From: Thainema sp.
Lineage (GTDB): Bacteria; Cyanobacteriota; Cyanobacteriia; Phormidesmidales; Phormidesmidaceae
Assembly: GCA_052168235.1 (NCBI GenBank)
Contig: JBQLZK010000006.1
Coordinates: forward strand, 1-64,000
DNA: 64,000 nucleotides
Direction of reading: 5' to 3'
Part shown: positions 21,628-37,493 of the stretch, in pieces
How the letters are laid out: each line of letters opens with the position of its first letter
Position numbering within the stretch: the first letter of the stretch is position 1
The notes under the pieces: model-generated
What the model was told of the DNA's origin: nothing
The model's database searches: none
Seen by the model: the letters and a program-made list of their open reading frames with translations, nothing else
Position numbers and translations under genes: made by a program

Positions 21628-21665
21628 AAAGGATTAGAGGTTGGGATGGGTCGGTTTTGCGGTTT

Positions 21666-21922
21666 GCCCTCACCCTAAATCCCTCTCCCACAGGGAGAGG
21701 GACTTCCGATCCGGCTCTGCTTCTTACACAAGGCTACTGTGTACACACAAATCTCTAGACTCCGTTTCAACGTTGAGATCCCCCTAAATCCCCCTTAAAA
21801 AGGGGGAACTTTGAGCAGGTTCCCCCCTTTTTAAGGGGGGCAAGGGGGATCATTCGGGGTTGAGAGGCAGTGATCAAGATGTGTGTACACAGTAGCCCAC
21901 AAGTAGAAGGGTTGGGTGATGA
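21666..21922. mobile_element. Nested repeats: IS50/Tn5-type MITE (21734-21895) inside a CCCTCACCCTAAATCCCTCTCC palindromic repeat, itself carrying an ATCCCCCTAAATCCCCC..GGGGGAT palindrome
   Basis: Perfect 18-bp IR GGCTACTGTGTACACACA at 21732-21749 and 21880-21897, flanked by the direct repeat CACAA. Confidence 0.85.
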
Positions 21923-22759: not shown

Positions 22760-22832
<73 letters not shown>

Positions 22833-22849
22833 TTATAAGGAGATGTACA

Positions 22850-23413
22850 GTGAAATCAGCACAGTGTTTAGGGAGATACCTAACACTAGATGAGTTTTGT
22901 CGCTGTACACAGACCTATCGCAAGTACGCTGACAAAATTAATCCATTTCCCAGTAACCTGGATGAAACGATTCCGGCAATAGAGGATTTGTGTCAACATA
23001 TTGTCGATCCGGTGATTGATCGATTTGGACGGGAGAGATTTCAGCTTACCTATGGGTTTTGCTCAACGGATTTGAAGCGATGGTTAGCCAAGAAAGATCC
23101 AGTAACAGGGTTGAAGAATGGCAAGGTTAGCCCAAACTTAGATCAGCATATGGCCCATGAGGTTAATCGAAATGGGAAATACTTTTGCGATCGCGCTGGA
23201 GCTGCCTGTGATTTCAAGATTTGCGATTTGCCCAGTGATCAGCTAGTGGATTGGATCGTCGCTCAGCAGTTGCCGTTTGATTCGCTTTACTATTACGGTG
23301 CAGAACGCCCCATTCACATCAGCTATGGACCACAGCATAAGCGGGATGTATGGGCCTTTATTGAGAAAGGAACACCAACTCAGAAAGGCACAGAACGTTG
23401 GCAGCACACTTAG
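22850..23413 (+). CDS. Peptidase M15-like (Zn peptidase fold) protein
   Basis: GTG after AGGAG; LTYGFCS, DQHMAHE, GAACDF, PIHISY resemble the M15 H..D..H ligand pattern. Confidence 0.65.
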   Translation: MKSAQCLGRYLTLDEFCRCTQTYRKYADKINPFPSNLDETIPAIEDLCQHIVDPVIDRFGRERFQLTYGFCSTDLKRWLAKKDPVTGLKNGKVSPNLDQHMAHEVNRNGKYFCDRAGAACDFKICDLPSDQLVDWIVAQQLPFDSLYYYGAERPIHISYGPQHKRDVWAFIEKGTPTQKGTERWQHT

Positions 23414-23437
23414 CACTGTGGAAATAAACAGAGTTCT

Positions 23438-23635
23438 TTAGAACTGTTTGTCTAAGCCTGCCTGCTTCAAAACAGCATTCGCTGTATGACGCGATTTGAT
23501 AGCACTGTCAACTACGAATCGTCTTTCTGTGATTGGGCTGTACCAAATTTCATGATCGCCTTTGCCTTGTCTTTCAAACGAGCAACCTGCTTCTAGCAAG
23601 ATCTTTTTGAGTGTTGGCGTCAAGGATTTTGCCAT
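23438..23635 (-). CDS. HicA family toxin
   Basis: RQGKGDHEIWYSP...ANAVLKQAGL. Confidence 0.9.
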   Translation of the reverse strand: MAKSLTPTLKKILLEAGCSFERQGKGDHEIWYSPITERRFVVDSAIKSRHTANAVLKQAGLDKQF

Positions 23636-23644
23636 TGCCTTTCC

Positions 23645-23887
23645 TTATGCCACCTCGATAATCTCTTGCTTATGACTGGTTAGCTCAAAGGAAATGATGC
23701 CTTTGTAGTCTTTAGGAATCACTTCATTAAGTATCAGAAGTTCTGGAATCAAATCACGAAGCTTGAGATCTAGCGCTTCCAGAGAGTCAGCTTCTGTCAC
23801 AAGTCCAGGCACATTTTCACTGGTTGCGACCCAAACTGCTGCCTCTATATCCCAAAAAGCATCAATTTTATAGAGTGTCAATTTCAT
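23645..23887 (-). CDS. HicB-like antitoxin (DUF1902)
   Basis: WDIEAAVWVATSENVPGLVTEADSLE. Confidence 0.88.
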   Translation of the reverse strand: MKLTLYKIDAFWDIEAAVWVATSENVPGLVTEADSLEALDLKLRDLIPELLILNEVIPKDYKGIISFELTSHKQEIIEVA

Positions 23888-24047
23888 ATCTAACTTTCCT
23901 TAGGTAATCATCTCAAGCTCGTAATCAGAACATTTGGTACAGAAAGCATTATTAAGAGCATACATTTATTCAAAAACTGTAAAGACTCTAAAGGTAGATC
24001 TAAACGTACATAGAACGTTGCCTTTTAAGGCGATTTATTGAGTTTAA

Positions 24048-25235
24048 TTAAACACGAGATATTAAAAATGGACGTAATTGTTTATCGATCTCCCTTAAAA
24101 AAGAATTCACCTCAACAGATAAAGATTTAACATGTTCATGACTGATTTCGTGATACTTTCCATCACTATTGCGTCTACCATTCCTGTGAACAATATCATG
24201 GCGAATAATGATTGCCTTGCGTATTCTTGTCGCAGATTCTTTGGGGAACTCAACATTGAGGGTTCCTTTATATAAAGCTTCAACTTTACCAATGCTATGG
24301 AAAGATAATCCAGATAAGTAATCGGAAACCTCTCGCTCTATTACATCCATCCTCTTGAAAATATCACTCAGACTAATTTTTTGATATTGGAATTCTTTAG
24401 TGGTTTCCACAAATAGCCTTAGTTTATCTTCCCGTGAAAGTAATATTTTCGTGAAAATATCTGACAGATAGCTTTCCATTGCTGTAATTATGCTTGCATA
24501 AAGCATTCTATTGAGTGGAGCTTCTAATTCGCGTTTCAAGGTATAAGGGCCATCAATAGGTCGGCTTAATTTATTAATATTTTTGATAGACGCTTTAAAT
24601 TCTTTATAGAAGTCAGTATCAAGATTTTCAATATAATAATTATTTATATCTCTATCTTTTGGTATTTTAGGCCATTCAAAGCATTCGCACTCATCTTCTA
24701 GCCTTTCTACAGCTCTCTCAATAATCTGTGGAGAGGCTTCGTCCCAAAATTTGTCTCTGATGACATCAATGGTTGAATAAGGTCCATCTATAACATCAAT
24801 GTATTCAGAATCTTCAAAATTATTGTTCAAATTGTGTTTGTAAAGAGGTTCAAACTCTGAGAGAAACCAATCCATGATTGATTTTACTGTTTGATGTCGA
24901 AAGTCAGTTTTTCTATGTAAACCATTGCTACTTAAATTATGACGTTTGGAATCTTTTTCTTCTTCCACAAAATGAGGAGAATCCAAATAAAAATATCTTC
25001 CCTTAGAATCTCTATAAAAGTATTTTGTTTTTGAGTAAGATCCTTTTTGATCAAGTCCTTTACAATGCCTTCTGATTTGGCTATTAACAATATGTGTAGG
25101 ATTTTGTGCTTTAAACTAATATAGATTATTTTCTATGATCGTGTGATATATTTTTTTGACCGACATGGGCTTTCCATGTTGAGTCATTACTTCTTTAATT
25201 GCCTCTATTATTGTTATCTTGCCGTTTCTTGCCAT
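24048..25235 (-). pseudogene. Winged-HTH (HARE-HTH-like) + HEPN protein interrupted by one in-frame TAG at 25118-25116
   Basis: ATG at 25235 reads MARNGKITIIEAIKEVM...NNLY*FKAQNPTHIVNSQIRRH and continues in frame into the listed 24986 ORF, which ends with the HEPN motif RHDIVHRNG. Confidence 0.75.
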
Positions 25236-25267: not shown

Positions 25268-27352
25268 TTATTTCGCTCGCATAGCTGATCGCACAAGTTT
25301 CTTTTGGTACTCATCAGCATCTTTGCGCCACACAACTCGATGCCCCCGCAATTCTGCACCATGCTCAGCTAAACAGTGCTGCCAGCCACGGCGGTCATAG
25401 ATCGCTTTGACATCGTCGAGCAGTCCCCACTTACCCTCCTGCTGGCTGAGTCGGGCAAACTTATCATAGTTTGGATAGTCGGCAGTAATCAGTTGCTCTT
25501 TCTGATGCAGCAGTGGCGGATTATCGAGGTTGTAATCGCGGTATCGCACCTGCAAATCCCGTAGACCAACTGCCATGCTGGTGTGGAGAGCCGGATGGGG
25601 TTCATCGTCGAAGTCTGGATAGAACAGGTAGGTGATCTGAGGCTTTTGCAAATGGAATTTGACGACCGTTGCTGCATCCGGTCGGCCAATGGTGCGGGAG
25701 GCACAACCTTCATAGAGGCGGAGCAGTGGATCAAGCTGTTCAAGGGCTGAGACATGAATCCAGAGGGAATTAGGACGCTGTTGACCAATAGGACTTTGAC
25801 GGCAGCGTTCGGCCAGGATTTCTGTCCGACCTAAGCTCATCAGCATTAGATCAGCGGCAGTACAGGCTTGCTGATAGTTGCCGAAGAGGGCTTTAATATC
25901 GTGCTGGACAGTGGCAGACAAATCCCTGAACTTAGGGCGTTTACCGAAGTGGCTCAAGGCCAAGTACACCATTAGGTCATTACGGCGCTTATCTGCGATC
26001 GCATCCCATTCACTCACATCAGTCGCTTGTAAGACGAGCTTGAACGCTCGTTTGATGCTGCCAAACTGAGACTGGATGGGACTAAAGGCGTCGGAGCCTA
26101 GCTCATCGGCAGCCGGTAAACGACCCCGCTCGGTGTAAAAGTCCATCAGCGGCTGGAGTTGGTCGCGGTATTGCTCAAACTTGCTGACCTTGAGGCGAAT
26201 CTGAGGCGCTTTGGCGCGGGAACGGAAGCGGGAGGCACGAAACGACTCGGCCTGGGCTTCATCTCGGAAGACGAAGTAAATGCCAAGCGCCACAGGAATC
26301 GCGTCTACGCCAAGAACTTGGTCGATATAGAATTTCAGTTCTTCCTGCTCGTAGTATTTCTGAAAGGTGTTGCGGCTGGTGATGATGCCGTCGCCATAGG
26401 CAATGACGCCCCGTGTCCGGTCGTCAATTAGGACTTGAGCTGCAACGATGAGAACGGTTTCAGCCAGTTGCCAGGCATTAATCAGCGCTGCTCGGCGTTC
26501 GGCGGTATCTTCAATCACATTGATCACATAGCCGAGATTGACCACCTGAGCAGAAACCTGGGGCTGATCGGGGCGAAAGTAAGGATCCCAGCCGCTGCTG
26601 ATGTGGCCGAGTCGCTGGATATACTCGATATCGGCTCCATGACCGCAACCGTAGTCGAAGTAGGTGGTGCCGGAAGGAAATAACCCAGCTTCAACGGCTA
26701 GGCGAACGGGTTTAGAAGCCGTGACACGTGCGATCGCAGCTTTGTGGCGTTGAATTTTGGGTTTAGGATTGGCTCTGGCTGACTGGATCGCACAAGCTAG
26801 GGCGTGATCATGAATTTCAATTCCTCTTTGGATCAGACGCTGTGCCCAGGCATCGGTAAAGCCAATTTCGCGAGATTTATCCAGTAAACCCAGTGCTTCC
26901 TGCTGACGGGTTAAGTACTGAAACTTGTCGTAGTGAGGATAGTCTGGGGTGACAAAGGCTTCCTTGCGGTGCAGAACAGGTGGATTTTGGGTATCGGCAT
27001 AGGAGCGTGACCAAACCTGCCCAGTTACCAAATCGACTTGTAGGCTGTGGGCGAGAGCAGGATGGGGATCGTCGTCGAAGTCAGGATAGGTGAGGTAAGA
27101 CAGCTTGAGTTGGTCAAACTGGAACTTGATTAGTGTAACGTTGAGCTGTTCCCACTGAGCTGATAAGCGGGTTCGAGCGGCTTGTTCGTAGGCTTGCAGG
27201 TAGGGGTGCAGCGCTGTTAAGGCTGAGTGATGGACATAGAGCGCGGTTGGCAAAAGTTTACCGATAGTGCTCTGCTGGCAGTGCTGTTTGATATCGTGAA
27301 GCGAAACAGCATTTAGATTGGGAAGTTGCAGGGACGATGCGATCGCAGTCAT
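25268..27352 (-). CDS. DNA phosphorothioation-associated putative methyltransferase (TIGR04096-like)
   Basis: IQRHKAAIAR, FDYGCGHG, GWDPYFRP, NLGYVINVIED; duplicated YPDFDD.PHPAL...NPP.LH.KE domain at both ends. Confidence 0.88.
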   Translation of the reverse strand: MTAIASSLQLPNLNAVSLHDIKQHCQQSTIGKLLPTALYVHHSALTALHPYLQAYEQAARTRLSAQWEQLNVTLIKFQFDQLKLSYLTYPDFDDDPHPALAHSLQVDLVTGQVWSRSYADTQNPPVLHRKEAFVTPDYPHYDKFQYLTRQQEALGLLDKSREIGFTDAWAQRLIQRGIEIHDHALACAIQSARANPKPKIQRHKAAIARVTASKPVRLAVEAGLFPSGTTYFDYGCGHGADIEYIQRLGHISSGWDPYFRPDQPQVSAQVVNLGYVINVIEDTAERRAALINAWQLAETVLIVAAQVLIDDRTRGVIAYGDGIITSRNTFQKYYEQEELKFYIDQVLGVDAIPVALGIYFVFRDEAQAESFRASRFRSRAKAPQIRLKVSKFEQYRDQLQPLMDFYTERGRLPAADELGSDAFSPIQSQFGSIKRAFKLVLQATDVSEWDAIADKRRNDLMVYLALSHFGKRPKFRDLSATVQHDIKALFGNYQQACTAADLMLMSLGRTEILAERCRQSPIGQQRPNSLWIHVSALEQLDPLLRLYEGCASRTIGRPDAATVVKFHLQKPQITYLFYPDFDDEPHPALHTSMAVGLRDLQVRYRDYNLDNPPLLHQKEQLITADYPNYDKFARLSQQEGKWGLLDDVKAIYDRRGWQHCLAEHGAELRGHRVVWRKDADEYQKKLVRSAMRAK

Positions 27353-27603
27353 AATGCGGCACCCGTACAGGTTTCTTCTCACCGTACCGAGTTGAGATGA
27401 GGTTGTACTACCCCACAAATAGGGTGCAGTTCTACAAAGACCTACTAGTGCAAGCGTTTGCCACTATATATAGAAAGTTTAGTAGACTAGATACACGTTG
27501 AAGCACTAATGGTGGTTAGATAAAGATTTGCTGCCAGTGGCTTACAATCTTCAAAGTTTTATATTAAATCCGTAATTTAAGCAGATGTTATCGGACGATT
27601 GCT

Positions 27604-28818
27604 ATGCGAACGTTGAGCCTATTTGAAGAAGACCGTCTTACGCTGCCGAAAAGTATTGAGCTAACGGTGGAGTCATTGACGCAATATGGACAACTGTATC
27701 GGCACTGGGCGATCGCATTTTCGGGCGGCAAGGATAGCACCGCTACGGTCACGCTGCTGGCACATCTGCTGGAAACAGGGCGTGTTCCTCAACCAGAAAG
27801 TATTACAGTGCTCTATGCCGATACGCGACAGGAGTTGCCGCCGCTGCACTCGGCAGCAATGAAAATTTTAGATGAGCTGCGCGATCGCGGCATGGATACG
27901 CGGGTGGTGTTGCCCAAGTTAGATCATCGCTATTTCGTGTATATGCTGGGGCGCGGAGTGCCGCCGCCGTCGAATACGTTTCGCTGGTGTACTCCGAAGC
28001 TGAAAGTGATGAGCATGGAGCGGGAACTGGAAACGCTGCGGCAGGAGCGGGGTGAGAAGTTCCTGATGCTGACGGGCGTGCGGATTGGTGAAAGTGCGGC
28101 TCGGGATCAGCGGATCGCCGTGAGCTGCACCAAGGATGGTGGAGAATGCGGCCAGGGCTGGTTTCAGCACACGTCGGCCAATGCTGTGGCAGATACGCTA
28201 GCACCGATTGTTCACTGGCGAGTGTGCCATGTCTGGGACTGGCTGATGTTTGAGGCTCCGATGCTGGGCTTTTCGACGGATGCGATCGCAAAAGTCTACG
28301 GTCAGGATACGGCAGAGGGAGAAGAACCGCTGAATGCTCGCACGGGCTGCATCGGCTGTCCCCTAGTGCAAAAAGATGCAGCACTGGATCGGGTGGTGGC
28401 TCAGCCGGAGTGGTCATACCTAGCACCGCTGCAAAAGTTGAGACCCCTGTACTGGGAAATTAAGAAACCTCAGTATCGCCATCGCAAGCATGGGGAAGTG
28501 AAAAAAGACGGTACGCTTGCCGCCAAGCAAAATCGGCTAGGGCCACTGCATATGGACGCACGGCGCTGGATGCTGGAGCAGGTGTTGGCGATTCAGGCTG
28601 AGGTGAATCAGGCGGCTGAGCGGTTGGAAATGCCGAAGATTGACCTGATTAATGAGGAAGAATTAGCACGAATCGAAGAGCTGATTGCGGCAAATACCTA
28701 TCCAGAAAAATGGAGCGGTGACGACCCTAGAGGAGATGAATGGTTTGAGGAGATTCTGCCGGATGGAAGCGTGCAGCCGTTGCTATTTGGGAAATTAGAT
28801 AGCATGAGTGATAGCTGA
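27604..28818 (+). CDS. DndC-like PAPS-reductase family protein (divergent, 404 aa)
   Basis: PP-loop FSGGKDST, YADT, FRWCTPKLK, GVRIGES, RTGCIGCPLV, GPL..AR. Confidence 0.8.
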   Translation: MRTLSLFEEDRLTLPKSIELTVESLTQYGQLYRHWAIAFSGGKDSTATVTLLAHLLETGRVPQPESITVLYADTRQELPPLHSAAMKILDELRDRGMDTRVVLPKLDHRYFVYMLGRGVPPPSNTFRWCTPKLKVMSMERELETLRQERGEKFLMLTGVRIGESAARDQRIAVSCTKDGGECGQGWFQHTSANAVADTLAPIVHWRVCHVWDWLMFEAPMLGFSTDAIAKVYGQDTAEGEEPLNARTGCIGCPLVQKDAALDRVVAQPEWSYLAPLQKLRPLYWEIKKPQYRHRKHGEVKKDGTLAAKQNRLGPLHMDARRWMLEQVLAIQAEVNQAAERLEMPKIDLINEEELARIEELIAANTYPEKWSGDDPRGDEWFEEILPDGSVQPLLFGKLDSMSDS

Positions 28819-29492: not shown

Positions 29493-30890
29493 ATGTACCC
29501 AACTCCAAAAGAGCGGTTTGAAGACTTCACCCGTCATCATCCGGAAAATAAGCTGGAGCTGATTAACGGTCAACTCATTGTCGGCAACTCTCTGATTGGC
29601 AGCCGCCTACTATTACGGCAGATCTTACAGGGCTGGGGAGCTGAGGCGGCGATTGCCCTGGCTCCCATTGAAACTTGGTTATCAGCATTGGCAACAGGCT
29701 ATGGATGGAGCATTTCCTCCGTCGCCTCGATCGATGAAAAATTAACGGCGCTGGAATCTCAGGCCAGAGACGTTGAGTTTACGCCAGAAGATTTATCCGT
29801 TGGGAGCACAGATAACACCTGGTCACACCATCGCATTCGCCAAAATTTGACGATGGGCCTGTTTCGGTTGGCCAAGGCCGTTGGTGGAGAAGCCCTAGGA
29901 CGTGATTTCGTAATGCGCTTGGGGAACAACGGGTTCACTCCAGATTTAGTCTTTTTTAAGAATGCTGGATTAAATCGACTCTACAGCTCTTTTGTCAGTG
30001 GGCCAGCAGAACTCGTTATAGAAGTGCTGATGCCAGGACATGAAGACTGCGATCGCGCTCAGAAGTACGAATACTATCAAGCAGCAGGAGTGCCAGAATA
30101 TTGGCTGATTGATCCGGTAGGGGAGCGGGTAGAGTTTTATCGGCTCATCGACGGTCATTATCGGCTACAACCAGTAGCAGCCGATGGTTTTTACCGCCCC
30201 AGCAGTGTTCCGGGGTTGGCGTTTTGTCCGGCAGCACTCTGGCCAGTAGAAGATCCCAATCCGATAGATCCGGCTTTTTTCGTTGTAGAGCAACGGGTTG
30301 AGGATTTTGAGCGGCTAGCAGGCGACGACGGGCCAAAATGGGGGTCGCTGCTGTTTATTCCCAATATTCAGGTTAATCCAGTGCCGATTAGCTTTGAGGA
30401 GTACATCAGCTGGTCTCCCAGAGCAAAGTTTGAGTTCATGCAAGGGAAGCCGCTGATAGACTCAACACTGGGTACCCGCAATGTTTTGGCGATGTTATTG
30501 ATGACGTTTGGCCTCGCCAGTGCAGCAAAGTTATTGCCTCCTCAAGCTTGGCTGCAAGGGTTGCAGCAACGGCTGGAATGGGAACGACACGATGTAACAA
30601 GAAAAGCCGAGTGGTGGGCGATTGCGCGACAGGCAGCAGAGATACTCCGCACTGATTTTTCGGTGGGGCGCTTGGGAGTGATTGGTGACTTGGCGATGCC
30701 GCAACCGTTGAATTACTGGTCAGGCATCACCCTGGTCTATTGGAAGAAACTGGAGAATTCCTGGCAGGCTTACGAAGCCCTAAAAGACATCGACCCGGAT
30801 CGACACATTGTTGATTTACGCCAGGTAGATGAGCGTTGGCTTACAGCTGATCAGCTTTGGCAGATTGAACGTCATCTGGTGGAACTATGA
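29493..30890 (+). CDS. Multidomain Uma2 protein with a duplicated helical module and a nucleotidyltransferase-like C-terminus
   Basis: Central PDLVF..ELVIEV..YQAAGVPEYW; C-terminal RLGVIGDLA...IVDL. Confidence 0.8.
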   Translation: MYPTPKERFEDFTRHHPENKLELINGQLIVGNSLIGSRLLLRQILQGWGAEAAIALAPIETWLSALATGYGWSISSVASIDEKLTALESQARDVEFTPEDLSVGSTDNTWSHHRIRQNLTMGLFRLAKAVGGEALGRDFVMRLGNNGFTPDLVFFKNAGLNRLYSSFVSGPAELVIEVLMPGHEDCDRAQKYEYYQAAGVPEYWLIDPVGERVEFYRLIDGHYRLQPVAADGFYRPSSVPGLAFCPAALWPVEDPNPIDPAFFVVEQRVEDFERLAGDDGPKWGSLLFIPNIQVNPVPISFEEYISWSPRAKFEFMQGKPLIDSTLGTRNVLAMLLMTFGLASAAKLLPPQAWLQGLQQRLEWERHDVTRKAEWWAIARQAAEILRTDFSVGRLGVIGDLAMPQPLNYWSGITLVYWKKLENSWQAYEALKDIDPDRHIVDLRQVDERWLTADQLWQIERHLVEL

Positions 30891-31277
30891 CGATTTGGAT
30901 AGCGCAAGCTGACACAAGTCGTCAATGCTCTTCAAGTTTGGATCGCCTGCTAGATAACCAATGCCGCGATGGAGATGGAGGCGGAGTTGGGTGGCAAGTG
31001 TTTCTGGGTCGGTACCGAGGCCATCGTTGTGGCAGCGTTGTTTGAGAGCGAGCAAAAGCTGATCGGCAATGGGGCCGCCGAAGATTTGCCAGGTCATTTC
31101 GACGTTGCTATCGGCAGGGATCGGCACAGGTGAGGGAATCGACGGTTCTGCTAAGGAACGGCAGAGAGCCCAGCGGCAGAGGACATTCCACTGGCTAATT
31201 TTGGTGACGCGCTTGAGTTTGATGAGCTGGTCTTTGGCGGATTGGGAAAGCTTGATGCGATCAACGGGGGCTTGCAT
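30885..31277 (-). CDS. dndE: DNA sulfur modification protein DndE
   Basis: IKLSQSAKDQLIKLKR.T.I.QWNVLCRWALCRSLAE, SNVEMTWQIFGG, LHLHRGIGYL. Confidence 0.93.
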   Translation of the reverse strand: MQAPVDRIKLSQSAKDQLIKLKRVTKISQWNVLCRWALCRSLAEPSIPSPVPIPADSNVEMTWQIFGGPIADQLLLALKQRCHNDGLGTDPETLATQLRLHLHRGIGYLAGDPNLKSIDDLCQLALSKSS

Positions 31278-31293: not shown

Positions 31294-31920
31294 CTAGGCA
31301 GAAACGGTTAGTGGTCGGTTGTCTGCGGTCATGCGGTGCAAAATGCCCATAATCAGATCCAGACGGTCGATGTAATAGTCTTTGGTGTCAATGCAGGCGG
31401 TTGTTTGCTGTAGGGTGAGAAATTTCCACTGATTACCCGTAGTGACAGCTCCATAAATGGTGTCAATTGCGTTTTCATTGGTTTGATTAAAGCGCTGAGC
31501 TGCTAGCATTGCCGCTAAACACTGAGCTAGTCCACCTTTGATATTCTCGTTTTTGGCTTCAAATACGATCGCAATCGGAGCTTGTATATAAAGCTGCTGG
31601 CTTGACAAGCTAATGATAAAGTCGCAGAACCCATTTAAACCTTGGGCTGTGTCCACATTAAATTCCACCCCAGAAAACAAACTGATGCGATCGCAACTCA
31701 TGCGTTTCAGTTCAATCAACATCGGGGCAATCAGCATCTCTGAACGAGCTTTTTCGGTATTGATGGAGAGGGCTAGTGTGGTGCTGTATTCCAGAGAACT
31801 CACAAAGGCAGGATTGAGTTCAAGTGCCAAATTTTGACGTGAAAACAAATCTAGACTGCTCTGAATGGCAAGGCCAAAGCTTTTTTCTAGCTGCGGCAGC
31901 GTAAAGTCTTTGTAAGACAT
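31294..31920 (-). CDS. Cyanobacterial PD-(D/E)xK-type hypothetical protein
   Basis: TEKARSE, GFCDFII, FEAKNENI, QCLAAM, YGAVTTGNQWKF. Confidence 0.8.
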   Translation of the reverse strand: MSYKDFTLPQLEKSFGLAIQSSLDLFSRQNLALELNPAFVSSLEYSTTLALSINTEKARSEMLIAPMLIELKRMSCDRISLFSGVEFNVDTAQGLNGFCDFIISLSSQQLYIQAPIAIVFEAKNENIKGGLAQCLAAMLAAQRFNQTNENAIDTIYGAVTTGNQWKFLTLQQTTACIDTKDYYIDRLDLIMGILHRMTADNRPLTVSA

Positions 31921-31938: not shown

Positions 31939-32259
31939 TTACCAGAAGTATCCTGATTTTACTGTGGTTTGCTGGGTGGCGAGGTCGTAGTGGAGCAGGT
32001 ATTCCCGTGCGATCGCACCTGTAGTTCGCAGTTGTTCCACTTCTTCGGCGCGAATTTCGGTATCAGTGGACAGCAGTAAAACCTGATGGCTGGCTTGGGG
32101 AAAGTATCGCTCGACCAGATGATTACGATGTTCGGAGTCGAGCCGTCCCAGGGGCGTGTCGATGGCGACGGGCAGTTGCCGACCGGAAGCGCTAGCTAAT
32201 CCCCAAAGAAGTGCGATCGCAAGGATCTGTTTTTCGCCAGCGGAAAGCCGATGTTTGGG
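31939..32259 (-). pseudogene. dndD: C-terminal fragment of DndD (SMC/ABC-type ATPase); not in the ORF track
   Basis: Manual translation: PKHRLSAGEKQILAIALLWGLASASGRQLPVAIDTPLGRLDSEHRNHLVERYFPQASHQVLLLSTDTEI...SGYFW*. No start codon; Walker A and coiled coil absent. Confidence 0.9.
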
Positions 32260-32271
32260 TGGCCATGCGCC

Positions 32272-32562
32272 TTACCCTTTTGGCAGGTATTTGACCAAGG
32301 CTTTCATAACTTCTCCGGGTTGAAATTGCAGGGGACGATCGGCGTTGGGGGCGGAGAGGAAGTCTGTCCATTCGAAGGTTTCGGCAAAGCCGAGCTGGTG
32401 GAGGGTGTTGATGATGGTGGTAATGGATTGTTTGGAGCCGATGACGAGGATTTTGACGGGTTCGCGATCGCGTTTGGGGTAGGAGTAGAGTTTGAGAGAA
32501 ACGGAAAGAGAGACGGTTTCTGAGGAGTCGGATGAGTTGGAGAGGAAGGATTGGGTTTGCAT
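32272..32562 (-). CDS. Small cyanobacterial hypothetical protein divergent from an XRE regulator
   Basis: REPVKILVIGS..LHQLGFAE..EW pattern. Confidence 0.7.
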   Translation of the reverse strand: MQTQSFLSNSSDSSETVSLSVSLKLYSYPKRDREPVKILVIGSKQSITTIINTLHQLGFAETFEWTDFLSAPNADRPLQFQPGEVMKALVKYLPKG

Positions 32563-32580
32563 AGTTGTCGCCTTAAAGTG

Positions 32581-32646
32581 TGGCATCAATTTGGATGCCA
32601 ATAATCATAGGCGTCAGTTCTGACTGCGTCAACCCTTTTGATGCCA
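32581..32646. promoter_or_regulatory. Probable XRE operator sites
   Basis: IR TGGCATC-N6-GATGCCA at 32581-32600 and a degenerate copy GCGTCA..TGATGCC near 32626-32646, between divergent genes. Confidence 0.5.
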
Positions 32647-32678
32647 TTATATTTTTCATCCTCTGGAAAGATGGAGGC

Positions 32679-32912
32679 ATGGGAAAAGCAGGAGCAGCAC
32701 TCAAGCAGGTACTTGAGCAATATGAAATCAGTCAATATAGTCTTGCTGCGGTTCTTGATGTAGAACGCAACAACGTCTATCGATGGGTCAACGAAAAGCG
32801 TGATCCATCTGGTGAAAGAATCGTTGAAATTGTTAGAGCACTAAAGTCTATGAATTCTGAAGCAGCAGAAACATTTGTTTCTTTATATTTAGGAGATGAA
32901 CTCTTAGACTAA
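32679..32912 (+). CDS. XRE-family helix-turn-helix regulator
   Basis: ISQYSLAAVLDVERNNVYRWVNEKRDP; ATG after GGAGG. Confidence 0.88.
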   Translation: MGKAGAALKQVLEQYEISQYSLAAVLDVERNNVYRWVNEKRDPSGERIVEIVRALKSMNSEAAETFVSLYLGDELLD

Positions 32913-33250
32913 AACCGCAATCTACCTGTAGCAAGCATTCGATAACCCATTGCCATTGATGCAAACGAAACGAAGAATTGCCATAAACTAGTTGGATTTA
33001 ATACGGCTCGACTGCTAGCGAAGATCAAAACGATGCTGACTCCCACAAATATCCAACCATAGCTTTTGAGACTCATGGGCAACGCAACTAGCCATACAGT
33101 TCCGAGCACTAAGAGCAAGATGGAGAGATCAGCAGCAATTCCACGCCAAAAATAAGGATAAACATTCGTAGTAAAGAATATGTTTCGACCCAAAAAATAA
33201 ATTCCAAGCAGAATCAATGCAAAACCAATCAGTTGAATAAAGAATCTCAT
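32909..33250 (-). CDS. Small 4-TM membrane protein
   Basis: 113 aa with four hydrophobic segments. Confidence 0.75.
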   Translation of the reverse strand: MRFFIQLIGFALILLGIYFLGRNIFFTTNVYPYFWRGIAADLSILLLVLGTVWLVALPMSLKSYGWIFVGVSIVLIFASSRAVLNPTSLWQFFVSFASMAMGYRMLATGRLRF

Positions 33251-33289
33251 AACGCCACTTAACTCAAATAACTATTTTGGATTGAGGAA

Positions 33290-34249
33290 TCAAGCGATTT
33301 CCCATCGTTCTCTATGCCAACTCAGCGCTTCTAAACTGGGTCTAAATTTATCCTCAGTAGGTAACTCAATTTGCTCACCTTTGAAATCCATCATTCCTCG
33401 GCTTTCTATTGCTATTTCTTCTGTAAATCGATCTCTTGGAATAACTATACGATAATCATTGCTAATTCCAAACCAACCATGATCAAAAGCCCAATGATGA
33501 TTTTTGCAAAGCGCTAAACCATTAATAAAGCGATCATCTCTGAATTCCGAAAACGGCTTAATGTGTGCTCCATCAACAATATTCTGAGCATCAGAGCTAA
33601 TGATTTTTAAACGGCAAAATGCACAACGTTGATCATAGAGAGAAACTACGATTCTTCGAAACGCACCATTCCTCACAACAATGTTTTCTTCATTCTTTAG
33701 ATCTTTGATGCTATATGTCGCACCTCCTTCTTTTAAAAGCCGATTTTTAACGATTTCAAATTCATCTACAAGTGCAAGTTGCTCAATTTCGGAAGTTTGC
33801 TCAGAAAACCAAGTATCAATTAAAACCTTTAGCAAAAATATTCTTTGTTCAGGATTTTGCAAAAGAAAGAATAGCTCTGAATCAAAATAGGCGTGTTGAA
33901 CTGTTTTTCTGACTGCTGTAACTCCTTTACGGCCTAACTTAGTAGCTGATGTAGCTTCGCTGTCTGGATCTAGGTAAAGATGCCAAAATTTATCACCTGT
34001 TAAATGAACAAAAGGAAGTGATATATCAGAACGATGATCAGTTGTTACTAAGCTACGCCAATATTTTAGGAAGGTTGAAATTAGTTCAGGTGATAAAGGA
34101 ATTCTGTTCTTATAGATTTTTCCTTGTTCAATCAACTCAAGAACTGAAATAAGCAAAATAGGTTTATGTGGAGCGCTTCCTCGCTCTCGATTTCGGTTTA
34201 CATTGAGATTTGCGAACTTTCTCGCGTAGTAGTGCAAATCTTTTTTCAT
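33290..34249 (-). CDS. SBD-HNH endonuclease (putative phosphorothioate-dependent, ScoMcrA/SprMcrA-like architecture)
   Basis: N-terminal APHKPILL...SLPFVHLTGDKFWHL; C-terminal CAFC..GAHIKPF..NGLALCKNHHWAFD. Confidence 0.82.
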   Translation of the reverse strand: MKKDLHYYARKFANLNVNRNRERGSAPHKPILLISVLELIEQGKIYKNRIPLSPELISTFLKYWRSLVTTDHRSDISLPFVHLTGDKFWHLYLDPDSEATSATKLGRKGVTAVRKTVQHAYFDSELFFLLQNPEQRIFLLKVLIDTWFSEQTSEIEQLALVDEFEIVKNRLLKEGGATYSIKDLKNEENIVVRNGAFRRIVVSLYDQRCAFCRLKIISSDAQNIVDGAHIKPFSEFRDDRFINGLALCKNHHWAFDHGWFGISNDYRIVIPRDRFTEEIAIESRGMMDFKGEQIELPTEDKFRPSLEALSWHRERWEIA

Positions 34250-34267
34250 AAATGTAAACCAGACTAA

Positions 34268-34831
34268 CTATGCTTCATCAAGTTTTCTCATGTACGTGCT
34301 GTACATTTTCATAAAGTACCCCGGTGGCTCTTGAAAACTATCAGTCTGTGAAATTTGTTTAACTTGATCCAGTTTACCTGGAAACCATCGACCGACTAGA
34401 ACCGCCCGTAAACTATCACGCAAAGATTGTTCTTGTAAAAAATCAAACAAGTCCTCATCTAAGTAAGCATGGCTAATTGCACGTTTCACCTCTGCCAGAG
34501 TCTTTAACTTTATCTTTTTAGCTAAAACTTTCTCAAAACCTGGATTGGCGTATAAGTGCCAAAATTTACCGCTTTTCATATGGAAAAACGGTCGTGAGAT
34601 ATCGGGATAATGACTAGCCGATCCTAAATAGCTCCAATACTTTAAAAACGTTCGATTGATTTGTCTAGATAATTCAATTCGATTCTCATGAATTACTTCG
34701 CGTTCAAAGAGTTCAATAACTGAAAGCAATAGAATTGGCTTGTGAGGCGCAACGCCATGAGCACGATCTACCCGTATCCTCTCAAATTTCTTTGAGTAAT
34801 ATGCAAGAAGCTTAATTCTTTCTAAATCCAC
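34268..34831 (-). CDS. Stand-alone sulfur-binding-domain (SBD)-like protein, no nuclease domain
   Basis: APHKPILLL...FLKYW...SRPFFHMKSGKFWHL, paralogous to the N-terminus of the downstream gene. Confidence 0.78.
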   Translation of the reverse strand: MDLERIKLLAYYSKKFERIRVDRAHGVAPHKPILLLSVIELFEREVIHENRIELSRQINRTFLKYWSYLGSASHYPDISRPFFHMKSGKFWHLYANPGFEKVLAKKIKLKTLAEVKRAISHAYLDEDLFDFLQEQSLRDSLRAVLVGRWFPGKLDQVKQISQTDSFQEPPGYFMKMYSTYMRKLDEA

Positions 34832-34895
34832 TTGCTTTAAGTTTAGTGGCTTGTACTACAGAATGAATGATAGACGAAAGATTTCTCTCATGAGA

Positions 34896-35153
34896 CTAAT
34901 CTGATCTTTTATCATCTAGCATCTCTCTCTTAATTTCTTGTATCAAGTCTATAATCTGTTGCCGAGTTTCGTATCCTTCTGCAACTAAAGACTCCTTTAA
35001 TTCTTGTTGAATCTGTTCTACAGAACTCAGCGGTTCACGCAAAGCTGTTTTTCCTAAATACCCAAGCCTCAACATATCTTCTAGATATACTACGAACTCT
35101 CGATCTCCAGAGACTACTTTAATATTGCAGAGATAAAGCCCATTATCATTCAT
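34896..35153 (-). pseudogene. Chimeric ORF: first ~12 codons of a HepT/DUF86 toxin joined to unrelated sequence
   Basis: MNDNGLYLCNIK resembles a DUF86 start and overlaps the MNT stop (ATGA); no RN..xH motif follows. Confidence 0.55.
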
Positions 35154-35476
35154 AGCGGTATCGCATCCTGCATCACCCGATCCTTAATCCGCTCGTGCAG
35201 AGCCGATGGAGTCGCCACATCCACCGATCTCCCCAATAAATCCTCCAGATCCTGTATTAGGCCAATGTGGTCAAGCAAACTGCGCCCCGGCTCCAGGTCT
35301 ACTAACAAATCAATATCACTCTGCTCATTCGCTTCTCCTCGCACTACCGAGCCAAATACCCGAATATTAGATGCTCCATGTTGTGCGGCAATAGAGACAA
35401 GATCTGCCTTTTGCGCTCTTAATCGAGCCAGTAGATCATTCACCCTAGAAGCCTCTAGATTGGAGTCTTGCATCAC
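35150..35476 (-). CDS. MNT antitoxin
   Basis: IRVFGSVVRGEA..SDIDLLVD..LEDLLGRSVDV. Confidence 0.9.
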   Translation of the reverse strand: MMQDSNLEASRVNDLLARLRAQKADLVSIAAQHGASNIRVFGSVVRGEANEQSDIDLLVDLEPGRSLLDHIGLIQDLEDLLGRSVDVATPSALHERIKDRVMQDAIPL

Positions 35477-35553
35477 ATCACCTCCAAAACCTCAGTCCAC
35501 TCAAACTCATTTACACTCTGCCGCACCAGCTTGATCAACGAAACCTACTTCTT

Positions 35554-35748
35554 TTACAAATGTTGCCAAGCCTCCTCCTCGTCAGGTAACAACCAGTCCT
35601 TATTTAAGGCAGACTCACTCAATAAAGCAGTTTCAAACTTCTCCTGTGCCTGAGTCATATTCAAAAACTGAATAAACGACAATACTGTTGTCAAAACATC
35701 TTCAGGAGCTTTTTCTAACTCCTGCAAAATTAAATCTTTAATCGTCAC
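35554..35748 (-). CDS. DUF2281-like antitoxin
   Basis: ETALLSESALNKDWLLPDEEEAWQHL; an overlapping TTG-ATFVK start resembles a MazF/PemK toxin that does not continue. Confidence 0.8.
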   Translation of the reverse strand: MTIKDLILQELEKAPEDVLTTVLSFIQFLNMTQAQEKFETALLSESALNKDWLLPDEEEAWQHL

Positions 35749-35759
35749 TTCTCAACTTC

Positions 35760-37493
35760 CTACATCGCAGTATAAGTATTCACCCGATACCCTAGTTCAC
35801 TCCCTAACAGCCGCGTCACTGCTTCTAGCTGCCGCAACGTTTCTTGCGTGACCCCATCCTCAACTGATCCATCACCGCAGTAAAACAGCGTATGATCCGT
35901 ATTCAACCGATTTTTCATCAAAGCTCGTAAGGCTGGAATCTTATTCTCCGCAGTACCAATCAGCCGAGCCCGCTTAGAAAGCAACAAGGTCAGGTTCTCA
36001 TTATCTTCATCATCACCACCAATTGCGATCGCACGGCCAATCTTGACTGATAAATCGGCATACTCCAGCACCTCGTCATCCGTCAGTTCCACCAAAATCG
36101 GGTAGTAGCGATAATGCACCAGCGCCCCCTGTTCAATGGCATTCCGTAGGGTAAACTCCGGCTCCAGTACCTCGCCAAAATAGTCAAACAGCGCCTGGGT
36201 GCCCCGATCATCAAAATACCGCTCCGGTGTCGCCGACAGTCCTAATCTCAACCCCACTGTCTTTGGCAAACTGGCCGCCAATCGTTGCGCTCCTAAGTTA
36301 TGCGCCTCATCCCCAATCAACAGCGTCTTCTTGGGAAACGAACCAAGCTGCGACTGAAAGCCCTGACTAGTCAGCGTCGCATTCGTTGTAATCACCGTGA
36401 CAAACGGCTGCAGTTCTAATTTCAGGTTAAGCAACTGATTCGACAGATTGCTCTGCCACTGCTTCAAACTCTCATAGGCCAAAATTGGCTCTAGCCCAAA
36501 CTTCCGGCACTCCCGATCCCACTGCTGCACTAAGTGACGGTAAGGACACACTACAATCAGCGCTTGCAGCTCAATTTTCTCGTATAGCTCTGCGGCAACA
36601 GCCAAAGCGGTAATTGTCTTTCCGCTTCCTGTTGCCATTTTCAGTGTGCCGCGCCCATTATTTGCAAACCAATTCTCCACCGCCTGCTTTTGGTAATCCC
36701 GTAGATTGAGCCAGAATGGTTTAATTGGGATTCCTTGAAGTTTGGTGGCTACTTCATCAGGAAAATCTAATTCATAATCTCCTTTAGTACTAGCAGCATA
36801 AGGCTCTCGCGTCGGTGGTTTATCAGGGCAGTACTTTTGGATCAGAGATCGCGTTACCGCCTCCGGAAACGGCATCACATCAACCTTGGGCGTGCGATTC
36901 TGCCACAACTCCTCAAATGCCTCTGCTCGCATACGTGCCCATTCGTCAAGTCCGGGTTGCCAAGACGCACAAACCTCTAATACCTCAAAATTATGCTGTA
37001 AGCCATTTTCACTTTCATTGGCTGAGCCGTTGAAAGTTACTAAATTCCCCTCATCATCAGCAAAGATACCCAGCTTTTCGTGATAGATGCCCCGTAACGC
37101 TTCAGGTACAGCTAACTTGATCTCTAGATTTCCCCGCGCCAGCAACCAAGTCAGAGCTGCGAATCGCTGTTTCACAAAATCGGGCATATCCTCTTGATCA
37201 AAGCTTCTCAGCAATGCCCGATTAATCACCTCATCTCGCTGCTGGAGACCCTGCTGAATTGCTTCCACATCCGCTTCAGACAATTGTGGTGATGTCACCA
37301 ACCGCATCCGCCCACCCGACTGAATAAATGCTGTTAATCCCCTCGCCACCAGTGCCAGCACCGAGCTCGAAAAGTATCCCACCGCACGGTTGTAGACGGT
37401 TGCCTGCTTCAAACAAGGAATATAGAAATCCTCAACTAAGTTGGACTCACTACTGCGATATCTCTTGCGAAGGTTTAGCGCTTTCAGATTCAA
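35760..37493 (-). pseudogene. DNA phosphorothioation-system restriction enzyme (PLD + SF2 helicase, TIGR04095-like), C-terminally truncated
   Basis: HEKLGIF..GSANES, NWFANNGRGTLKMATGSGKT, DEAH, LSATP. Ends at YRVNTYTAM* before helicase motifs V and VI (LDEGVD, QRRGR). Confidence 0.85.

Follow-up and report, generated by a model that had tools for sequence, protein, structure and literature searches.

When a locus for phosphorothioate (PT) DNA modification has lost its writer and kept two intact genes of the PT-reading type, what do the remaining genes do, and did they have a part in the loss? This question is raised by positions 31,939–37,493 of a window of 64,000 nucleotides (the whole stretch analysed; positions 1 to 64,000 of contig JBQLZK010000006.1, forward strand) from the cyanobacterium Thainema sp. 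We favour, with moderate confidence, the reading that the locus is an eroded Pbe-Dnd island whose resident gene pair, predicted to restrict PT DNA, has outlived the PT writer and probably disfavours it. Judged from sequence and distribution, the pair is most likely a type IV PT-dependent restriction module, predicted to guard a PT-free host. The window's genome (G000; GCA_052168235.1) comprises 7.54 Mb in 205 contigs and is 99.99% complete. A genome of a sister species in the same genus (G001), which carries the window's island at 92% nucleotide identity, served as reference for dN/dS and for junction comparisons. We further searched 401 genomes of the class, which gave 82 matches for DndE, 86 for a sulfur-binding-domain (SBD) profile and, for DndC, 59 full and stop-free matches, five cut by contig ends and two with stops. 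Altogether 88 stretches were mapped, namely, up to 20 kb around 75 of the DndE matches, 12 further loci and the window. G-, L- and P-numbers below denote genomes, fetched loci and proteins, respectively.

The pair consists of two genes on the reverse strand, both open frames and intact, as the first-pass annotation had stated: an SBD-HNH nuclease of 319 aa (33,290–34,249) and a standalone SBD of 187 aa (34,268–34,831) with a conserved C-terminal tail. SBD-HNH matches SBDHga (8h0l) in phmmer with E=4.5e-21, and the standalone SBD matches the same protein with E=6.9e-21. A Foldseek search with the predicted SBD-HNH model returned SBDHga first (TM 0.89 of target), followed by the SBDs of SprMcrA and ScoMcrA; the mean pLDDT of the model is 67.5, and its HNH part is weak, falling below 50 at residues 221–250. 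The sulfur cavity of SBDHga is formed by H25, K26, L75, P76 and H79 (PMC10602919), and all five align to H28, K29, L78, P79 and H82 of SBD-HNH, whereas the pocket of the standalone SBD is H30, K31, R80, P81 and H84. The nuclease part scores 39 bits on PF13391 (HNH_2; cut-off 21), and its HNH residues (H229, N243, H252) and zinc ligands (C209, C212, C248, H251) are invariant in the alignment of 20/20 SBD-HNHs from tandem pairs. Both genes have a dN/dS of 0.08 against G001, which also has no writer, indicating purifying selection. To judge from its pocket and HNH residues, SBD-HNH would be expected to bind the backbone sulfur and cut nearby.

The standalone SBD represents a real family: among its 612 matches, the best 120 span 166–231 aa, and 119 of these have HK in the pocket. 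The view that it is a truncated SBD-HNH is therewith rejected. In 21 pairs its pocket invariably reads APHKP, whereas seven of the partner nucleases have YQP and one has HQP; in ScoMcrA, the substitution R117Q lowers PT binding (PMC6224610). Speculatively, the small protein may reinforce the sulfur recognition of the nuclease or provide it. In three loci (L063:15691-16662, L163 and L161) the usual partner is replaced by another SBD-HNH, which lies convergent behind the standalone SBD and is 26% identical to that of the window; this replacement (G024) scores 264 bits on NF045808.

On the writer side, dndE (30,885–31,277, reverse strand) is intact, as annotated before, with 126.6 bits on TIGR03184 (cut-off 71.85), and a PD-(D/E)XK nuclease gene (31,294–31,920, reverse strand; PADLOC PD_DExK 1e-49) lies between it and dndD. 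The latter is indeed reduced to a startless tail (31,939–32,271, reverse strand), which corresponds to residues ~547–654, the C-terminal half of the ABC ATPase head (TIGR03185 positions 548–650), and has no ATG, GTG or TTG at its beginning. This stub reads in frame directly after the TAA of orf109 (32,272–32,601, reverse strand; likely ATG at 32,562), and the open stretch is 110 codons long, or 106 if counted from 32,259. The orf109 product (109 aa) is cyanobacterial, belongs to no known family and gives no Pfam match, but its gene precedes dndC in the intact loci G027, G221, L172 and L250, and its stop codon coincides with the deletion junction. The main loss, overlooked in the first-pass annotation, is that of dndC, the catalytic part of the PT writer. 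Profile searches of G000 found no DndC or DndD over the cut-off; the sole match to the DndC model, at ~144–145 bits (cut-off 290), is a PAPS-reductase paralogue at 27,604–28,818. Of the components of a functional DndCDE writer, G000 thus has DndE but neither a full DndC nor a full DndD. DndB was not found anywhere in the assembly, so that its reported absence is correct, but this is a poor sign of breakage, as dndB is visible in only 13/46 loci with intact dndC and dndD (20–40 kb fetched). Likewise, G000 contains no SspD/BrxP-type PAPS reductase of an Ssp/BREX-4 writer, the SspD model matching only the gene at 27,604 (positions 4–119). PAPS_reduct itself has two matches in G000, that same gene and a strong one of 311 aa on contig C2, which we presume to be a housekeeping protein. 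From these searches we infer that G000 makes no Dnd-type PT.

Could the missing parts lie elsewhere, split off by a rearrangement or an assembly error, as had been offered as an alternative? The assembly is in 205 contigs, the pbeA junction at ~35,765 is not present in G001, and neither junction is bridged by any piece among the listed contigs of four public sequencing runs of low depth. (Eleven public runs share sequence words with the window, none of them as many as half, and no RNA run is among those listed.) However, full-length DndC, DndB, DndD and PbeA relatives used as queries found no missing halves in the 99.99% complete assembly, for which reason the alternative fails, and G001 has the identical dndD junction directly after the TAA of orf109. 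We therefore give it a next to negligible probability.

It is also very improbable that the strain still modifies its DNA, with the PAPS-reductase paralogue, DndE and the DndD stub, or the PbeC ATPase encoded on contig C3, acting as a makeshift writer whose mark the reader tolerates. Such an arrangement would account for the low dN/dS of the paralogue (0.02), dndE (0.02) and the stub (0.08), and for the intact pbeA, pbeC and pbeD on C3. However, the paralogue aligns (29% identity) only to DndC residues 16–387 and lacks the region 433–482 predicted to bind DndD (PMC12193691), and it is also found beside intact dndC. Moreover, DndE binds the DndD coiled coil (PMC12193691), which is deleted here, and gut isolates with dndD but without dndC were reported to have no PT (PMC12914056).

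How did the pair come to lie between two broken genes? The first-pass annotation proposed that foreign reader DNA had been swapped in between two breakpoints, its arrival cutting both dndD and pbeA. In relatives, the usual order of the island is pbeA-pbeC-pbeD-[slot]-(HTH/orf109)-dndC-dndD-dndE, where HTH is a helix-turn-helix gene, and an intact SBD-HNH occupies the slot in 21/46 stretches having full dndC and dndD. An SBD-HNH gene beside an intact dndD, an observation named beforehand as one that would speak against the proposal, is thus common. The metagenome contig L250, whose DndE is 86% identical, has SBD, SBD-HNH, HTH, orf109, dndC (496 aa, motifs present), dndD, dndE and PAPS in this order, and G296 likewise combines the layout of the pair with writer genes still in place. 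The segment is AT-rich, as had been noted (GC 40% versus 50%), but its depletion in HIP1 is weak (one site in 3500 bp versus 4.2 expected, P=0.08); furthermore, SBD-HNH is AT-richer than dndD in 12/12 relatives checked, intact loci among them, so that composition cannot date its arrival. In favour of the swap, the standalone SBD changes state eight times on a 26-leaf tree of the PAPS proteins, implying that the cassette does move, and in G000/G001, G003, G005, G303 and L250 the stop of orf109 directly abuts a shortened dnd gene, as the end of an element might. The layouts of L250 and G296 nevertheless largely refute the swap. The pbeA breaks differ between G000 and G001, and no attachment repeat of the tRNA-Val gene was detected, since its last 14–20 bases occur nowhere else in the genome. 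We consider the swap quite unlikely. Judged from gene order, the cassette belongs to the island: two deletions removed genes on either side and left it standing, rather than the cassette having split the genes that flank it. Thus, of the claim that the locus traded making PT for restricting it, the combination of reader-type genes and no writer stands, whereas the exchange at one site does not.

The second break lies in pbeA (35,760–37,493, reverse strand), which encodes an HKD/PLD nuclease fused to an SF2 helicase (PADLOC PbeA 7e-197; TIGR04095 3–321/451). It matches the PbeA model over positions 3–576/682 and is truncated after codon ~576 (up to ~585) of ~714, stopping at YTAM* just ahead of the LDEGVD motif of seven intact relatives, which bears out the earlier observation that the gene ends early; pbeC and pbeD have been lost from the locus. 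In G001, by contrast, the break in pbeA falls at codon 68, and the sequence beyond it is a different one. The differing breakpoints indicate separate loss events, and they also leave the junction at 35,765 with no independent witness. It is likely that the two losses, of dndC with most of dndD and of most of Pbe, represent two separate deletions. Relatives show the order pbeA-pbeC-pbeD-[slot]-HTH/orf109-dndC-dndD-dndE, with a slot able to hold the pair; in the window, the stop of orf109 is joined to dndD codon ~547 and pbeA is cut before its last helicase motifs, in a genome presumably without Dnd-type PT. The closest full-length DndD among the best 120 matches listed (P0001) is 92% identical over the stub, and no full-length DndD from the same species is among these 120. 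P0001 reads ...DHEGELLPKH at the junction region, and its sequence at the join suggests that an AAGG microhomology was possibly used in the dndD deletion. Truncation of pbeA at its 3' end is found in 12/35 tandem loci, and a complete pbeA with pbeC and pbeD in 6/35. In the orphan, intact set on C3 (L064:4513-16792), pbeC and the pbeD-like gene are separated by queD-like and radical-SAM (queE-like) genes, and the genome holds no PT writer to go with it.

Does the pair have anything to do with the loss of the writer? Genomes with a standalone SBD (36) were chosen by hand, with damaged copies in G197, G259, G371 and G413. Of the genomes bearing dndE (82), those with a standalone SBD have a full dndC free of stops in 2/15 cases and those without in 56/67 (Fisher p 4e-7, kin not being independent); the latter divide into 26/30 with a single SBD-HNH and 30/37 with none. 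Within the five families having the standalone SBD, the corresponding figures are 2/15 and 9/13 (p 0.006). At the level of loci, an intact writer adjoins 3/26 tandem pairs with the downstream side in view versus 20/22 single SBD-HNHs; this tally leaves out 11 contig-edge loci, the ambiguous L153, six duplicates and two non-cyanobacterial loci. On the PAPS tree (quick method, 26 hand-labelled loci), an average of 5.3 out of seven independent pairs ran in the same direction and none in the opposite one, and a companion Fisher table with counts 11:2 gave p 0.0012. The tree of SBD-HNH has long branches and comes from a quick method alone. The lesions beside tandem pairs are varied: single stop codons in dndC (G163, L151), deletions leaving dndC from ~393–430 on (G003, G005, L156, L251), loss of dndC alone, dndD stubs (L165, L166), an insertion sequence (IS) in dndD (G033) and the loss of dndCDE altogether (L150, L168). 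That many relatives show this loss next to the pair makes it likely that the pair acts against the writer. SBD-HNH would, to judge from its conserved pocket and HNH residues, cleave PT DNA or dnd islands entering the cell, in the manner of ScoMcrA, and co-occurrence suggests that a tandem pair would be costly alongside an active writer, so that dndC would be lost repeatedly and Pbe would then decay. Lethality of the combination of reader and writer was demonstrated for ScoMcrA (PMC3009677). Another candidate role, that of the standalone SBD as an immunity protein shielding PT sites of the host, is disfavoured, since the gene should then be found together with intact writers, and the opposite is observed.

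Several observations weigh against the reading that the pair opposes the writer. The independent-pairs test reaches a median p of 0.06 only. Tandem pairs adjoin sequence-intact writers in G296, L155 and L250; G173 has intact dndBCDE in addition to a tandem pair that lies beside a dndC fragment in a derelict island on another contig, and G019 has intact dndBCDE in addition to an SBD-HNH 75% identical to that of the window, also at a derelict island. Single SBD-HNHs stand beside intact dndCDE in 20 loci, some of them (Microcystis type) keeping the HKP pocket. Over all 401 genomes, dndC is hardly rarer with a standalone SBD (2/36, two more being cut by contig ends) than with no SBD at all (31/315), so that the contrast appears only among genomes keeping dndE. 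SBD-HNH itself reaches 113 bits on NF045808, below the cut-off of 180. An escape of the coexisting writers through a different PT specificity is not supported: by the loop rule of PMC12193691, the specificity loops of cyanobacterial DndC are all R-x-x or Q-x-K, and RQG and RQK loops occur in broken and intact tandem loci. Finally, purifying selection on the stub and dndE, discussed below, is a further difficulty.

The main rival view is that the pair is not opposed to the writer but serves as a partner or back-up nuclease of the island, or reads some other modification, the loss of the writer being decay of a costly island. Variants of this view make the pair a self/non-self reader, a suicide effector or a nuclease with an SBD regulator, which outlasts the rest by working alone. 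PMC10853773 gives 698 taxa whose Dnd loci contain SBD(wHTH)+SAD+HNH genes, for which it suggests a role as restriction partners. Besides the 21/46 writer-intact loci with SBD-HNH and the coexistence of reader and writer in G019, G173, G296, L155 and L250, the YQP pockets in 7/21 tandem nucleases, considered with the weakened PT binding of R117Q ScoMcrA, fit this view, as does the Microcystis SBD-HNH Mae9806I, for which only a 2–4-fold PT preference was reported (PMC7461809). However, islands of the same families without a standalone SBD mostly retain dndC, the sister comparisons never run the opposite way, and a partner dependent on self PT should decay like Pbe, yet the pair keeps its low dN/dS. 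We regard this view as a doubtful account, although one to be taken seriously.

What is left of the writer still shows codon-level constraint. The codon changes in the stub between G000 and G001 are 15 synonymous and two non-synonymous over 90 codons, and between G253 and G303, which share one junction, 13 and 0. Simple decay does not explain this constraint, nor that on dndE, which is retained although the part of DndD that it is predicted to bind has been deleted. The changes in the stub cluster in few codons beside the junction. The stub may be translated from a non-AUG start, for which a CTG or TTG ahead of PKH is available in G001, G253 and G303, though G000 has neither; otherwise, it would be an old deletion allele whose 3' flank has been refreshed by recombination with intact alleles. 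Stubs beginning at or near PKHRLS (PKHRLSAGE), as in the window, recur in G253, G303, G287, L165, L166 and L167 and at the IS in G033. C-terminal DndC fragments (from residue ~414–430) also stay open (L052:13004-13360, L059:12856-13155, L048:13485-13778 and L251 from 2848 on), those in G003 and G005 having a GTG at the stop of orf109; it is through this portion that DndC is predicted to contact DndD. Purine-rich repeats lie downstream of orf109 in some relatives and may seed deletions. A bolder version of the favoured reading, which we put forward only tentatively and think less probable, is that the pair is a two-component PT reader with the standalone SBD as sensor, whose arrival repeatedly drives the loss of dndC, so that one locus flips between writer and reader states in filamentous cyanobacteria. 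If this were true, the constraint on the stub and dndE would stem from sequence still being exchanged between writer and reader alleles.

The island holds further genes. The DndC-like PAPS-reductase paralogue (27,604–28,818, forward strand) has a near-invariant loop GVPPPSNTFRWC and is divergent from the gene of a dnd-associated putative methyltransferase (25,268–27,418, reverse strand; TIGR04096 841 bits). It is present whether the writer is intact or not and covers only the catalytic part of DndC, whereas several relatives keep only the C-terminal part of DndC itself. Proteins of ~1230–1290 aa ending in DndD (P0014, P0017, P0026, P0029 and others; G236), several with a PAPS_reduct domain, are apparent cyanobacterial DndC-DndD fusions. 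An XRE/Cro HTH gene (32,679–32,912, forward strand; PF01381 33 bits), a usual island neighbour, is divergent from orf109, upstream of which a sigma70-like promoter match (32,604–32,632, reverse strand; TTGACG-17-TATGAT, 10/12) agrees with the consensus only, seven such sites being found versus 8.6 expected by chance. The variable cargo comprises a 113-aa membrane protein with weak Pfam matches only (32,909–33,250, reverse strand) and small genes at 34,896–35,748 (reverse strand): an 85-aa open reading frame (ORF), an MNT nucleotidyltransferase (35,150–35,476) and a DUF2281-like ORF (35,554–35,748), partly absent in G001. Further away, at positions 22,760–24,986, tRNA-Val is followed by an ORF that is conserved but carries no annotation, by a HicA/DUF1902 pair and by a HEPN gene rich in AT (32–34% GC) that G001 lacks, and short repeats at ~21,660–21,920, matched at dozens of places in G001, are probably a dispersed REP-like element. 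The island of G003 adjoins putative Tn7/CAST tniQ, tnsC and tnsB genes (L053:909-4199), to judge from their N-terminal sequences.

Taken alone, the window is an ordinary eroded island, and earlier work had described SBD-HNH enzymes, tied them to dnd loci and documented the lethality of a reader combined with a writer (PMC7461809, PMC10853773, PMC3009677). Neither the pair with a standalone SBD nor its association with writer loss turned up in searches of the open literature, although the supplements of PMC7461809 and PMC10853773 may hold such loci. An SBD survey dropped sequences shorter than 200 aa as likely truncated (PMC10602919), so that a family of 187-aa proteins may have been missed. 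Published views conflict, SBD-HNH being described either as avoiding dnd clusters (PMC7461809) or as a restriction partner (PMC10853773). Both patterns occur within one cyanobacterial island, where single SBD-HNHs coexist with writers and the tandem form mostly does not, and the loci offer matched natural pairs for asking what makes a PT reader compatible with a PT writer. Repeated writer loss also offers another way to read the incomplete dnd clusters noted previously in cyanobacteria than as primitive (PMC8569181). The standalone SBD, in turn, could serve as a compact PT-binding reagent.

Among known systems, the SBD-HNH restriction endonucleases SprMcrA, EcoWI and Mae9806I resemble the window's gene in their SBD-linker-HNH order, SBD fold, pocket and HNH residues, whereas ScoMcrA has an extra SRA domain. 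These enzymes are encoded by single genes rarely located by dnd (<3.6%; PMC7461809); by contrast, that of the window lies inside a Pbe-Dnd island with a standalone SBD partner, falls below the NF045808 cut-off, has His as its fourth zinc ligand and is a predicted enzyme. The closest solved relative of both genes is the sequence-promiscuous SBDHga (PDB 8H0L), whose five cavity residues are all present in SBD-HNH and four of them in the standalone SBD; Hga has a PD-(D/E)XK nuclease, whereas the standalone SBD has no nuclease and carries Arg at the L75 lid position. The DndCDE-PbeABCD (CxC ABC-ATPase) loci of PMC10853773 follow the same plan of pbeA, pbeC, pbeD (TIGR04062), HNH, dndC, dndD and dndE, but in the window the writer and Pbe are broken and the HNH protein lacks SAD/SRA. 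That study treats HNH as the partner of the writer, and the sections consulted do not describe a standalone SBD or adjacent writer loss. A further parallel is the exclusion between ScoMcrA and dndA-E in Streptomyces, where either is lost when the two are forced together (PMC3009677). There, however, reader and writer belong to separate islands of different species, whereas in cyanobacteria both states alternate in one island and some genomes hold both.

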